Counted from the stretch's first letter, positions 3,174-17,606 are shown. The stretch is 64,000 bases of DNA from Biomphalaria glabrata (GCF_947242115.1 NC_074716.1:24048637-24112636), one strand, 5' to 3'. Translations and numbers: made by a program. Notes: a model not told the origin generated them from the sequence alone.

Positions 3174-3421
3174 CTCTGCTGACAGATCTTTTAGGGTTAG
3201 ACTGCCTCACATGTTTACCCACAGACTTCTCGTGTCGGTTCAGGTGCCCGGAACTATTGCGAAGGCAGCTATGTCAACACTGTTCTCCCAGCGACCCGGT
3301 CTGCATGCCGCTGTGTCTGAGGACTCTGAGACGTCGACGTGACATAGAATGTTTGATGTGTCATGAGAACCTTTCGTGTTTAATTCAATGTGGCTACGTG
3401 GGTGTTAGCGTTGGGAAATAA
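3174..3421 (+). CDS. Gene A exon 2: mature region ALLTDLLGLDCLTCLPTDFSCRFRCPELLRRQLCQHCSPSDPVCMPLCLRTLRRRRDIECLMCHENLSCLIQCGYVGVSVGK*
   Basis: Acceptor tcttctttttttcag at 3161-3173. Three C-x2-C-x(5-6)-C-x3-C modules. Internal RRRR cleavage site. C-terminal GK amidation-type signal. AATAAA overlaps the stop at 3417-3422, with a further AATAAA at 3530. Confidence 0.6.
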
Positions 3422-4192
3422 AACCCAAAGATCTAATTCGAGTATTGTTCGTGCGAGTAGCATTTCGCTTTTTTTGAGTTCTTCATTAAGAGATTCGATT
3501 TTTAATTTTTTGTGAAAATAGAATGTAAAAATAAATTTATATGTTATATGTACTCTGTGGAGTCAGTGTTTCTTATATATGCTTTATATGTTAATTTAAA
3601 CTGTTCACCAAACGTCAAATAAAGAAGAACTTGACGAAAGGGAACGAATAGCTATTGCTAGTTTAAATATAAACTAAAAAATAAATGAAACGGTGACAAG
3701 CGGCAATCGTCAAGTTTCGTTTCTTAATTATCCCTTGGGCCCCACATGAAAAGGTCTTTTAAGTTAGTCTTGAATGGTTCCTTCAATGGCAGTGTGCAAC
3801 GCTAATTCCTAACAGTATAAATCTACATGTAAGTGCAGTCGTTCTATGAAATATTAAAGAGGCGGGGCAGTTTTTACACTGCTATTTTTTTATTGAGAAG
3901 ATTACATTGCCAAAAACACACAAGACACAAACAACAATTAAGGTTTACATCGTTCAGACATTGTTCACAGGGGCGTAACTAGGGATTTGGGGGCCCAGGG
4001 GGATTGACCTCTTTGGGGGCCCCTTACATTTTGACATTCGACATATGACATGAGATAATGTACGCAAATATATATAAGCCCAAAATCAAATTGGTTCATT
4101 ATATCAGTAAACTTAACAAAAAAGTAATCATGAAGACTCTTTTAATGAATAATGCCGTTGTTTAATAGTTAAATAATGCACAAGTGACAAAT

Positions 4193-4435
4193 CTAAACAG
4201 ATATCGCTTCACGTCGTGCATTCTGTGCAGCAGAGACATCTATAACATCAACTACATCGATACTTTCTAGTATTTGTGACTTTACTGAAATTAAAGCCAT
4301 GATAAGCCTTTCTTGCGTCATTGTGCTCCTGAGATAGTCTTTGATGAGCTTGAGCTTTGAGAATGATCTCTCACTTGACGTAATGGAAGTGGCCTGAGTT
4401 AGCGGTATTCGGAGGAGGTTGCAAAGTTTGAGCAC
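4193..4435 (-). pseudogene. hAT transposase C-terminal dimerisation domain fragment (..RIPLTQATSITSSERSFSKLKLIKDYLRSTMTQERLIMALISVKSQI..)
   Basis: Matches the conserved hATC pattern (P..S...ERsFS.l..i....R..l....l..L). No upstream catalytic domain remains. Confidence 0.6.
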
Positions 4436-5046
4436 ACGTTATTCCCATATGAAGCCTTTTTCCTCAATATGTCTATTGGTGATTGTATTACTGGTTTGTT
4501 GATGAAAAGTGCTCGTGCATCAATGACATCTTTGAAAAAGCGATTTTCCATTTATTTCATCATACAAACAGGAAAAGTAGCACAGTTTGTCAGAAGCCTG
4601 TCTTCATTTAACAGGTGTCTTGTTTCAAGAAGAAACCCAAAGGTATCCATTTTCTTTCCAGCCTTGGAATCTGCCCTTCATCTCCATATGAAATCTGTCC
4701 AGCACTTCTGTCGCAACACGTTTGAATTGCGGTTCTATTGACAGTTCCTACATTAGAACTCAACTTCCCATCAAGTCTTTTCTTTCTTCTGGTTGTTTTG
4801 ATTACAGGGAATCCATAGTATTCACTACCTACTTTTGCTTTTTCGATGGATTGGGTTTTTGTCAGTTTCTCATTATTTTGCAGAAAGGGTACTAATTTCT
4901 TTAGGAGCTTCCCGTATATGCAGTCCAGACTTTTGTAGTTTCTTCTGAACTATATTAATTGGGCGCAGGAGCTTTGACCAGAATTCAAGATAGGCAAAAA
5001 ATTCTTAATTTTCCACTGCATGAAGTTGATTCTGTGCTAATATTAT

Positions 5047-5470
5047 ATGGTATTACGTCATTGTTGGTTGTTTATGTTTTGTGCGAAAGCAAAAAGATTC
5101 AGAGCATACAAAAGTGGGAAAGATCCATATCTCGTTATGCTCGAGTATAGAAATACTCCGATAAGTGGACTGCCGTATTCACCATCACAACTGCTGACGA
5201 GTAGAAGACTCAGGGAATCATTCCAACTGATCCCAAACTATTGAAACCATCGGTAGCTGAAAATGCAGAGACATTACTCAACGAACGACAGATGAAAAGC
5301 AAAGTGAAATACAATGCAAAACTACCTAAAGATTATTCTGTCGGAGAGTCCGTCTATGTCGAACATGGCAGAAAGCAGTTGTCATAAAAAAACATTCAGC
5401 ACCCAGATCTTACACCATTAAGACAAACGATGAAAAAACATGCAGAAGAAACCAACGCTTTTTGAATAAG
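5047..5470 (+). pseudogene. LTR-retrotransposon integrase C-terminal fragment (frameshifted)
   Basis: LEYRNTPISGLPYSPSQLLTSRRLR, then ..KLPKDYSVGESVYV.. and ..SAPRSYTIKTNDEKTCRRNQRFL.. in shifted frames. These match the Gypsy and BEL/Pao integrase tail (PRSY.V.T..G...RRNRRHL). Confidence 0.5.
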
Positions 5471-5632
5471 AGTTTCGATCAAGACATCTCTGGGTACTAT
5501 GATACCGATGAAGACAATGAACTGCAAACTGTTGGAACAAACGAAACAGACAGTTATAGACCAACGTCTAGAGAACTTGTTGTGCCAGTCAAGACAACCA
5601 GAAGTGAACGAATTCTTAAAGTTCCTAGTAGA

Positions 5633-6060
5633 CAGGGCCGGCCTTAGGCCTCTTCAGCCTATGCGGTCACAGTGGGCCCCGCGCTTTCATATGCCCCGCG
5701 CTAATTCTAAGTATTAAATTAAACCATTATAACGTAAATAAATTAACAGGGTTTTCGCGACCTCCTGATTTTCCAGGGCCTCCAGGAAATCTCACGAGAA
5801 GGCAAAATATACGATAAAGTCCTCAACTTTTTTTGAATTTATTCAAATCCCCTGAAGAATAGACCAAATTGACATTTTGGGGTGCCTATAAATAAAAAGT
5901 GGCATTGCGAGCTTTCATTTGATAAAAATTTATTGCAAAGACGAAAGTAGGCCTATTTTCTAATTAAAAAAAAATAATTTTGACATTATGCTTATCTACC
6001 CAGACTAGGCCCCGCGCGATCCGTTTCGCATAGGGCCCGCAAAAGCTAGGGCCGGCCCTG
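5633..6060. mobile_element. hAT-type MITE (TIR CAGGGCCGGCC). 8-bp TSD CTAGTAGA at 5625-5632 and 6061-6068. Nested in the hAT remnant
   Basis: Inverted termini CAGGGCCGGCCTTAGGCC ... GGGCCGGCCCTG and a perfect 8-bp duplication. Other copies at 8018, 57310 and 63125. Confidence 0.75.
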
Positions 6061-15307: not shown

Positions 15308-15611
15308 GTAGACAAACTTGACCAATGTATTGTTTTCAGGAATTAATACGTTTATTTGTTCATCTTTTTACTTTGTAAACATTTTAGGGACACGACTTGT
15401 TATCGCTCTCGTTTTGTTCAAGAACCTGTTATACTAATATATATACAACGAATGTATCTAGTAGAGTTGGGTACTAATGAAGTGAATTACACTTTATTCC
15501 TCGTTTGCGTTGGTCACTATTAAACATTTTGCTTTATTTTGACTATTACATCCAATAAAATATTAATGTTATAAACATGTTTAACTTTTATACCAACAAG
15601 GCTTTTAGTAG

Positions 15612-15890
15612 AACTAGACTCAAGTATTACTACTACTAAGAAAGCTGTAATAGAAATAGACTCAAGTATTACTACTACTAAGAAAGCTGTAATAGAAATA
15701 GACTCAAGTATTACTACTACTAAGAAAGCTGTAATAGAAATAGACTCAAGTATTACTACTACTAAGAAAGCTGTAATAGAAATAGACTCAAGTATTACTA
15801 CTACTAAGAAAGCTGTAATAGAAATAGACTCAAGTATTACTACTACTAAGAAAGCTGTAATAGAAATAGACTAAGGTATTACTACTACTA
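15612..15890. repeat. Minisatellite, 40-bp unit (aatagactcaagtattactactactaagaaagctgtaatag) x7, inside gene D intron 1
   Basis: Direct reading. Confidence 0.9.
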
Positions 15891-16506
15891 GAAGTAGGGC
15901 TTGGGTAAAAAAAGACAAAAATAAACTTTAAGGGCGAAACCAATATGCAATGAATGATTTTAGTATTCTTAGTAATTGACATCAATCAAAAATATTGTCA
16001 TACTCTGACTTATGCCTAGAACGTAAAGAGTAGTTACCAAGAGTAATTAACTAGCACCTTTAGTGTTTTATGTACTTCTGAAGGTCACCGAACAATTAGA
16101 GACCCTTTCTTTGTTGTAGATAGTCCTAATTAATTAAACTCACTTTAACTTTTTACACAATAAGATTAAAACACAGCAACATGATCAGTTTTAATTTTTA
16201 TAGGCAAAAAATACAGTCCTAGAAAAAAAAAAGAAAGCAATATTGAGAAATGAAAATGTGGAAGCGGTATTAAGAAATCTAAGAAAAACATTTTAAAAGA
16301 TTGTTCATTACTGAATTATATGGGCACATTATACATTGTAACATTTCTATAACTTTATACACCAAAAATCTATTTTTAGGCGTCCAAATAATTTATTGTT
16401 TCTTTTTTGCATATAAATAATGTTTGTCTTCTTTAATGCCTTTCATCTTTAAATGAAAAGTTTTGTAACGATGAAATATGATGATTGTTAAAACACCTCA
16501 ATACAG

Positions 16507-16614
16507 GTGCAGCTGTCCACGACCTGCCAGCTCCTAATGGATTGTCATCACGGTTCAGAAGACAAGTGGATTGTCGAACTTGTGATAGAAACACATTCAC
16601 TTGCTCTGGTGTTT
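16507..16614 (+). CDS. Gene D exon 2: (G)AAVHDLPAPNGLSSRFRRQVDCRTCDRNTFTCSGV, ends in phase 1, donor gtaagt
   Basis: Acceptor cctcaatacag. Furin-like RFRRQ site precedes the Cys-rich region. DCRTC parallels DCLTC in genes A and E. Confidence 0.6.
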
Positions 16615-17511
16615 GTAAGTAAATTTAATGATCATAACTTGAAATCTGTGTCACTGTAAAGTGGGATGCTAATATATTCCGTGAAGTCGCTCTTGAGATA
16701 AAGAAACTCTTTGATCTTCAGTTTTTTTAAGTTTTGAAACAACGCCAGTGTCATTTTTTTACGGTAATTTGTCAAGTAATTCAACTAATTTAGCATCATT
16801 CTAGAACCATCTACCGGATTTTCGCGCATATATTCGCACAAGCGTATTCCCCGGACACACTTATTCCACGCACAAAATATGTGAAAACTAAATCGTACAA
16901 CCCGAATTCTTATATACCCCGCATGTGCACAGCGTGACTTGTTGTAAACTACCTAACATAAAGTACTTTCATCAGTACTCTTTGTTCTCTTGAAGTTTAG
17001 AATGAGATGTTCAGAATGTACATTTCACAACCACACAGTGAACTATAAGAGATATGATAATGAAGACCCACCGGTATCTCTTTAGTGACCATTATGCTAT
17101 GTTTATGAGTAAAATACATTTTGTAAACCCCGCACCTTTTTATACCACTCGCAGCTGCCATTCTTTTGTAAAACCTGTATAACCCGCGGGTTATATGCTC
17201 GACCATGTTTGCAATATCTGCAGAAGTATAGCGATGTTTACTAGCAATTAAAACTAGAAGATTGAATTAATATTTATCACCAGTGCCAAATTCTTTCTGA
17301 TTCTTTAATTAATCATGACCTCAATATAGAGTAACACATATCTATCTACACTTTATCGCTATGACAAAATCTTGTTCAAGTATAGTAATTATATATTTCC
17401 ATTTCATTTGATCTCACTTTTGACATTGGTTTGTTACATTCATGATGCTATTTTAAAGCATTGATTTGTTATTGTTGTTATTTAACCAAGTAAATAAATT
17501 TTACTTTATAG

Positions 17512-17606
17512 GTCAGTACTACTTGAACGCATGTCTCTCTGGATGTGACATAATCCCATCTCTATATTGTAAACGAGACTGTTACGTGAAATATTCCAAA
17601 GCCTGA
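17512..17606 (+). CDS. Gene D exon 3: (C)QYYLNACLSGCDIIPSLYCKRDCYVKYSKA*
   Basis: Acceptor ttttactttatag. The split codon t|gt gives Cys and completes the module CSGVC. AATAAA ~100 bp downstream (17706). Total 8 Cys in the predicted mature peptide. Confidence 0.55.

Follow-up and report, generated by a model that had tools for sequence, protein, structure and literature searches.

A tandem cluster of five small neighbouring paralogous genes was identified in the first 17.6 kb of a 64,000-nucleotide stretch of Biomphalaria glabrata DNA (GCF_947242115.1 NC_074716.1:24048637-24112636; hereafter the window, with positions counted from its first letter). The genes, which follow one another in the order E, A, B, C, and D with B on the opposite strand, are proposed, at a probability of about 0.72, to encode secreted, probably disulfide-bonded, orphan Biomphalaria peptides. 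All five share a common architecture, in which a first exon of 15-18 codons, encoding only a hydrophobic signal peptide and stopping one base into the next codon, is followed by a G/GTA donor (GGTAATA, GGTAAGC, GGTAATT, GGTAGAC, and GGTAACT in A, B, C, D, and E, respectively), a phase-1 intron, and a Cys-rich exon. The second exon codes for a mature part of 35-82 residues with one to three C-x2-C-x6-C-x3-C units and looser variants of them, and the first unit begins 2-10 residues past the signal exon in A, B, C, and E. The shared signal exon and phase-1 intron bear out the proposal of an earlier note on this DNA that the genes are real paralogues for signal-peptide-bearing Cys-rich peptides. 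Exons, units, and other features of the window are listed in Table 1.

On translation of the window in all six frames, seven matches to the strict C-x2-C-x6-C-x3-C spacing were found, each within the first 17 kb, while windows simulated with an order-2 Markov model contained 0.06 occurrences on average and two at most (100 runs). The enrichment over shuffled Cys-rich peptides on which the earlier note had made its family depend was also found: 20,000 residue shuffles of the five mature peptides gave 0.015 occurrences on average and never more than two, against the seven observed. Between 17.6 and 64 kb, no further copy of the unit was detected by a six-frame pattern scan or by a family hidden Markov model run over all open reading frame (ORF) pieces of the window. 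The nine peptide strings quoted in the earlier note were all located at the expected places, and its statement that unit number varies from gene to gene, from one to three copies, holds. Several of its details required correction. The family range of 3174-17606 leaves out the exon of gene E (336-490). Gene A does contain three units, the third of which has a middle loop of x5 instead of x6; the first of the two units of gene B is canonical, whereas the second reads C-x-C-x6-C-x3-C; the C-x3-C variant attributed to gene D is present as C-x3-C-x7-C-x3-C but lies on a separate, putative third exon; and the single canonical unit of gene C is preceded by a fifth Cys just upstream. The sub-motif LGLD-C, described as shared, reads LGLD-P-C in gene B. 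In total, the mature peptides contain 12 (A), 8 (B), 5 (C), 8 (D-long), 4 (D-short), and 8 (E) Cys residues.

The spliced 100-residue model of gene A is identical to the GenBank entry "hypothetical protein BgiMline_015979", and three B. glabrata assemblies carry this independent annotation. For gene B, the annotation of strain BS90 gives a protein of 111 residues (KAI8791651.1; P0002), a model that was rejected after its 47-residue tail had been traced to a BS90-only insertion absent from the window and from Biomphalaria pfeifferi. The third exon of KAI8791651.1 (L002:11015-11155 in BS90) lies past the conserved stop, inside a BS90-specific insertion of ~1.2 kb, and is probably an annotation artefact; since the tail is confined to this insertion, the 64-residue two-exon model of gene B is the conserved one. 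For exon 2 of gene D, two endings are available, namely a K-stop (16620-16622) or splicing at 16614 through a GTAAGT donor (16615-16620). This donor overlaps the last Cys codon of the exon, and joining to position 17512 restores a Cys codon (t + gt). An AATAAA is found 99 nt past the stop of the long form and none within 500 nt of the stop of the short form, and the three-exon form, with its predicted third exon, is considered likely. Poly(A) signals are present 3' of A, B, C, and D-long, the AATAAA of gene A being 109 nt past the stop, and the exon-2 ORF of gene E gives the same translation in the M-line and BS90 strains. The cluster is under-annotated: two of its five genes (A and B) are annotated, as "hypothetical protein", and one of these carries the spurious tail.

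The window is 99.1% identical in DNA sequence to B. glabrata M-line chromosome CM074207.1 and 97-99% identical to BS90, and it is collinear with B. pfeifferi at about 83-92% identity. Coding exons are 92-100% identical to those of B. pfeifferi, compared with 86-93% for the 400-bp flanks, and a Nei-Gojobori comparison of A, B, and D pooled gave proportions of synonymous and nonsynonymous differences (pS and pN) of 0.081 and 0.020, respectively, with a pN/pS of 0.25. With exons more conserved than flanks and this ratio, the genes are conserved under purifying selection. In gene B, the mature peptide encoded by exon 2 is 100% identical between the two species despite five synonymous changes (pS 0.11, pN 0), and the amino acids of the signal peptide are likewise unchanged. 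The product of gene A is 96% identical to a B. pfeifferi "hypothetical protein" (pN/pS 0.32), and its three exon-2 replacements are all outside the Cys loops. Gene D, at a pN/pS of 0.57, evolves faster; the B. pfeifferi orthologue has three residue changes in 37 (exon 2), two replacement differences separate B. glabrata strains, and the exon 3 ORF is retained in BS90 with one residue change. Exon 1 of gene C is identical in B. pfeifferi at 55 of 55 nt.

These comparisons bear on the possibility that the ORFs are chance or decayed sequence without function. The lack of matches to the C, D, and E models in the protein collection searched would fit such an origin, as would the Cys loss and frameshift in B. 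pfeifferi gene C and the absence of gene E exon 2 from that species. However, the Cys spacing is enriched more than 100-fold, the splice architecture is identical in five genes, exons exceed flanks in conservation at a pN/pS of 0.25, and A and B have been annotated independently, so that non-functional sequence is hardly credible as an explanation of the cluster.

On top of the purifying selection of retained members, the cluster undergoes birth-and-death turnover. In B. pfeifferi gene C (L001:16856-17004), the last unit Cys is replaced by Tyr and a 1-bp insertion leads to a different, Cys-containing C-terminus, ...EWQSHCWSSSLMSDLCRLNRQYRHQ followed by a stop, with six Cys in total; the gene is either decaying or rewired. 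Exon 2 of gene E is absent from B. pfeifferi, where a 3.66-kb stretch containing it is missing, while the gene E signal exon and its G/GTAAC donor are retained (L001:8773-8819), 1.2 kb upstream of gene A. The family has at least one additional member, F, found in B. pfeifferi on the plus strand of L001:3031-3218 (VVPQINVCEYCQAGKVQCLNNC...CICGDNKVCKDLC...GQIGI and stop), which has one canonical unit, one C-x-C-x5-C-x3-C unit, and eight Cys. The member F stretch has no B. glabrata counterpart within the interval compared, and no signal exon for it was found within 3 kb upstream (L001:1-3030); over the 27 nt preceding its acceptor, it is similar to the sequence that precedes gene E exon 2 (85% identity, E-value 0.004). 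The presence and absence of genes in B. glabrata and B. pfeifferi document in part how the family evolves, namely by duplicating genes in tandem, losing genes, and gaining or losing units.

For A, B, and E there is good support for the common ancestry that the earlier note had read from shared sub-motifs, whereas C and D depend on Cys spacing, gene structure, and clustering. At the non-Cys positions of eight canonical units, identity is 12.5% compared with 7.0% after shuffling, and none of 5000 shuffles reached the observed value. A, B, and E can be aligned collinearly over two units, and composition-corrected BLASTP gave marginally significant E-values for A-B (0.017) and A-E (0.010), the search space being 73,000 residues. 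On the other hand, intragenic duplication, which the same note had put forward as the mechanism of diversification, left no trace in a DNA self-comparison, by which no residual repeat was found inside or between genes. Recent duplication or gene conversion was ruled out, as there is no nucleotide similarity between genes or units. Non-Cys identities within genes (A1-A2, 2/14; E1-E2, 3/14) may be set beside those between genes (A1-E2, 5/14; A1-E1, 4/14), and because units are no more alike within than between genes, the two-unit state predates the A/B/E split. On the simplest reading, A, B, E, and perhaps F descend from a two-unit gene, gene A later gained a third unit, and the second unit of gene D, with its separate exon and different spacing, is of other origin; duplication of units inside genes is plausible as part of this history.

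The family is an orphan, lineage-restricted one, with no detectable relatives outside Biomphalaria. An hmmscan of all five proteins against Pfam-A at E-values up to 10 returned no family, LOB included, and a sequence profile search of the PDB gave no match. Word-index searches with gene A alone or with a seven-sequence alignment retrieved only the Biomphalaria annotations P0001 and P0002, and when a 71-position family profile was run exhaustively with HMMER on 1.84 billion representative proteins, the sole matches were again P0001 (the B. pfeifferi A protein) and P0002 (the B. glabrata B protein). No description of the family was found in a literature search by peptide strings, locus tags, accessions, and the motif string, and the genes Bg00711x are unmentioned in the main text of a 2026 expression study that uses BgiBS90 identifiers.

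A possible course of maturation can be proposed from the gene models. The products would be routed for secretion, with the signal peptide cleaved off near the exon junction, and in the oxidising endoplasmic reticulum the four Cys of each unit would form two disulfides to yield small rigid knots. The number of Cys is even in every member of the family, F included, except C (5). Alternatively, the units may be zinc-binding knuckles, each C-x2-C-x6-C-x3-C holding one zinc ion in the manner of the C-block of the plant LOB domain. A literature search for this exact spacing led almost solely to the LOB/LBD "zinc finger-like" motif, so that the units could in principle coordinate a metal, and two of them end in C-P, as do many metal-cluster motifs; however, the hydrophobic signal-type exon at the start of all five genes would lead the products to an oxidising compartment, Pfam LOB was not matched even at E-values up to 10, a GAS block and a coiled coil are absent, and variation among units of the kind seen here (C-x-C and C-x3-C, with x5 to x7 middle loops) is commoner in disulfide frameworks than at a fixed metal site. 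Zinc binding is therefore regarded as very improbable. The likeness to the LOB/LBD C-block, whose spacing is identical (seven exact occurrences in the window), is one of convergent spacing and not homology: contrary to the snail peptides, LOB/LBD proteins are nuclear transcription factors with no signal peptide and a single copy of the block, followed by the GAS block and a leucine-zipper-like region.

Following the predicted disulfide formation, some of the products may be cleaved. The dibasic sites of genes A and D suggest prohormone-like processing: gene A carries RR and RRRR between its units and a C-terminal Gly-Lys, and in gene D, RFRR, a furin-type site followed by Gln, closes a pro-region of 19 residues. 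These hallmarks (RR, RRRR, and the GK end in A; RFRR in D) are conserved in B. pfeifferi, where both basic linkers of gene A are retained, and none occurs between the units of B or E. A prohormone convertase could cut A between its units, at ELL-RR-QLC and TL-RRRR-DIEC, and D before its unit, releasing single-unit peptides of ~18-29 residues, two of them beginning with Gln, and the Gly-Lys, Gly, and Gly-Arg ends of A, E, and C would be compatible with amidation. The odds are judged to lie slightly against this step. In the competing view, the products would remain uncut multi-unit proteins, RR and RRRR in gene A being mere basic linkers and the "amidation" ends coincidental. The units of B, E, and F are indeed joined by linkers without a basic pair, and an AlphaFold2 model of A, of low confidence, places helices across the linkers; yet B. 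pfeifferi retains RR, RRRR, and RFRR amid changes in adjacent residues, the residue after RR is Gln in A as well as in D, and the C-terminal GK, G, and GR ends are recurrent. Uncut proteins are thus a serious contender, although a doubtful one. A more ambitious form of the cleavage proposal is that gene A is a polyprotein cut at RR/RRRR into three two-disulfide peptides of ~20-29 residues (one with pyroglutamate, one amidated), and that, together with D, it represents an undescribed planorbid-specific class of disulfide-constrained peptide signals, either hormones or pheromones, whose miniprotein fold would be new; in this full form the proposal is unlikely to be correct.

Once outside the cell, the peptides might act as ligands for signalling, pheromone communication, or defence, as judged by analogy, and a role as hormone, pheromone, or modulator is a guess. 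Another possibility is that they are disulfide-stabilised antimicrobial peptides that kill by membrane attack. Rapid-turnover tandem clusters of small secreted Cys-rich peptides are typical of invertebrate immune effectors, gene presence and absence differ between the sister species, and the pN/pS of gene D is raised (0.57). Nevertheless, the mature parts are not cationic, with net charges of +2 (A), 0 (B), -4 (C), +4 (D), and -2 (E), and the charge of A comes entirely from the cleavable RR/RRRR linkers, its three putative single-unit products being neutral or acidic. In addition, gene B is under strict purifying selection, unlike most arms-race effectors, and no similarity to known antimicrobial peptide families was found with Pfam or exhaustive HMMER. 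Once the cleavable basic linkers are set aside, the mature parts have a neutral to acidic character that argues against classical cationic antimicrobials and fits ligand-type peptides better, and membrane attack is considered improbable.

Several points weigh against the proposal that the cluster encodes secreted, disulfide-bonded orphan peptides. Secretion, disulfide bonding, cleavage, and amidation have all been deduced from sequence. The Cys count of gene C is odd (5), and since B and E lack basic sites between their units, processing into single units cannot be general. The models of genes C, D, and E found no match in the protein collection searched, which leaves splice reading as the sole basis of three of the five models. 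In composition-corrected BLASTP, all gene pairs other than A-B and A-E, including those with C, D, and F, were non-significant, and leave-one-out profiles recovered only A (E-value 7.6e-4) and E (3.3e-7) clearly above background ORFs, so that the membership of B, C, D, and F is not provable from sequence alone. The statement that there are no relatives elsewhere is only as strong as the sensitivity of a 71-position profile searched against 1.8 billion proteins, and it is further limited by the fact that such short genes often go unannotated. Finally, structure prediction of the full peptides, which the earlier note had suggested as a check, yielded no confident fold. With a six-sequence alignment as input, AlphaFold2 reached a mean predicted local distance difference test score (pLDDT) of 59.7 for mature A and 50.3 for mature B; the helices that cover the C-x3-C segments in the low-confidence model of A are no more than a hint, both models, at a pLDDT of 50-60, being too weak to use. 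A Foldseek search against the PDB gave no matches.

Among known systems, conopeptides and the Mytilus MgCRP-I family share with the snail genes a short signal peptide, a small Cys-rich mature part, many paralogues, and divergent non-Cys residues, and conopeptides sometimes have a pro-region with a basic cleavage site, which is seen here only as RFRR in gene D. The conopeptide frameworks compared were nominally XIV (C-C-C-C) and XXII (eight Cys). Contrary to membership of a conopeptide superfamily, signal-including profile searches (with A, or with A and P0001) returned two Biomphalaria proteins only. The Biomphalaria signal peptides, unlike those of conopeptides and MgCRP-I, show no marked excess of conservation over the mature parts. 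Gene B is highly conserved rather than hypervariable, and a venom context is not expected, Biomphalaria being a non-venomous grazer.

MgCRP-I is described as having six invariant Cys that form three disulfides (PMC4558851), and it differs from the snail family in that the latter has reiterated four-Cys units with totals of 12, 8, 5, 8 (4 in D-short), and 8 for A-E. Schistosomin is a gastropod orphan disulfide-rich miniprotein, represented in B. glabrata by BgSmin, with a single domain of ~80 residues and one strictly conserved 8-Cys framework across gastropods and Conus (PMC13440164). It belongs to the same class of small secreted disulfide-rich proteins in the same organism and shares its total of eight Cys with B, E, and D-long, whereas the snail family is modular (four-Cys units in one to three copies) and was detected only in Biomphalaria. 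Schistosomin was not among the matches of the family profile in the exhaustive search or of the word-index searches, and it is set apart by these searches and by its description. The nearest structural analogy is presumably with apamin, MCD peptide, and endothelin/sarafotoxin (C-x-C ... C-x3-C). As in apamin and endothelin, four Cys fall within ~15 residues and the second pair is C-x3-C, as on one face of a helix, and the variant units of B (C-x-C-x6-C-x3-C) and F (C-x-C-x5-C-x3-C) approach the pattern; in contrast, the canonical units have C-x2-C instead of C-x-C and a middle loop of x6 instead of x7, and no sequence similarity is known.

Table 1. Features of the window (positions from its first letter unless another sequence is named).
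Feature	Position	Strand	Description
Gene E signal exon	M-line L003:4503-4549		MTIQVLLFLLLACCH/G, then gtaac; ~3.1 kb left of window start
Gene E exon 2	336..490	+	Acceptor AG 334-335, phase 1; product (G)FLIQKFDCLTCAEGDTFCLSNCIFTIFPTNLCSNCLPTDFQCLSSCKLIG, stop 488-490
Gene E canonical units	359-403, 431-475	+	Within exon 2
Gene E quoted unit strings	356-403, 428-475	+	String match
Gene A exon 1	2374..2428	+	Signal peptide MKLVIVLVFIAVTSGIST and first base of next codon; donor G/GTAATA
Gene A exon 2	3174..3421	+	ALLTDLLGLD-(unit 1)-PELLRRQL-(unit 2)-LRTLRRRRDIE-(unit 3)-GYVGVSVGK, stop
Gene A units	3203-3247, 3272-3316, 3350-3391	+	
Gene A quoted unit strings	3200-3247, 3269-3316, 3347-3391	+	String match
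Gene B exon 1	10695..10749	-	Signal peptide MKVLLIVLVVVLSLVFSN and 1 base; donor G/GTAAGC
Gene B exon 2	10099..10238	-	GMLGLDPCTTCVYFNTTCPFNCPPRNCDCTNPVVGCVVMCLNGLAK, stop
Gene B canonical unit	10174-10218	-	
Gene B variant unit	10120-10161	-	C-x-C-x6-C-x3-C
Gene B quoted unit strings	10174-10221, 10120-10161	-	String match
Gene C exon 1	12488..12542	+	Signal peptide MSFLTFALILLLLCSIKG and 1 base; donor G/GTAATT
Gene C exon 2	13089..13195	+	GWCFMPCSMCPKDDDFCPTYCVDDFEWQSIIGRAV, stop; canonical unit 13106-13150 and extra upstream Cys
Gene C quoted unit string	13106-13150	+	String match
Gene D exon 1	15256..15307	+	Signal peptide MKIFLVTLVAVTLCLAQ and 1 base; donor G/GTAGAC
Gene D exon 2	16507..16622	+	GAAVHDLPAPNGLSSRFRR-QVDCRTCDRNTFTCSGVC; canonical unit 16572-16616
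Gene D quoted unit string	16569-16616	+	String match
Gene D putative exon 3	17512..17606	+	(C)QYYLNACLSGCDIIPSLYCKRDCYVKYSKA, stop; variant unit C-x3-C-x7-C-x3-C
Minisatellite arrays	1-244, 6538-6816, 7755-8020, 13976-14201, 14421-14856		
Minisatellite array	15609-15890		In first intron of gene D
Minisatellite arrays, continued	19125-19607, 20564-20976, 21486-21989, 22235-23012, 29190-29452, 43083-44031		

The window as a whole has a G+C content of 36% and is rich in microsatellites and minisatellites, and scans for transfer RNA genes and Rfam families returned nothing in it. Short minisatellite arrays with units of 15-112 bp are unusually dense, several of them lying in introns and spacers of the peptide gene cluster. 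The array at 24533-28941 extends over 4.4 kb with ~115 copies of a 38-bp unit (94% matching) and has a G+C content of 45-48%, above that of its surroundings, with strong negative GC and AT skew, while a 16-bp tandem repeat at 50015-51810 (TGAGTTAATGAGCTAG) comprises ~113 copies (82% matching), the 50-52 kb bin having a GC skew of 0.76. A non-LTR (long terminal repeat) retrotransposon at 32567-34993 on the plus strand was recognised by endonuclease/reverse-transcriptase PF14529 (E-value 6e-9) and RVT_1 PF00078 (E-value 5.5e-40). Two long ORFs on the minus strand, at 46719-48203 (494 residues, beginning with a SAP-like "LSIKELRQELRDLDLGLKSLGSRETLTDRLRQAL" stretch) and 54864-55643 (259 residues), had no Pfam match and may be ordinary gene exons or parts of mobile elements. 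In addition, a dispersed repeat of ~600-750 bp is present in three copies in mixed orientation (36337-36951, 38998-39746, and 45395-46106; 72-79% identical) and was also found in B. pfeifferi at L001:4163-4761.

Schistosoma mansoni has B. glabrata as its main host in the New World, and the secreted peptides of this snail are candidate hormones, pheromones, immune effectors, and parasite cues. The cluster is a new instance of a very common type of gene family and not a new kind of system; its significance is modest, as lineage-specific clusters of small Cys-rich secreted proteins are common in molluscs and no current view is overturned. The present analysis adds corrected gene models, evidence of selection on the genes, and their gain and loss between two vector species. 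If the peptides were processed hormones or had a new miniprotein scaffold, they would be relevant to snail neuroendocrinology and peptide engineering. If the more ambitious signalling proposal were true, the peptides, which would be secreted by the obligate host of the schistosome and whose genes are not the same set in B. glabrata and B. pfeifferi, could serve snail-parasite or snail-snail chemical communication.

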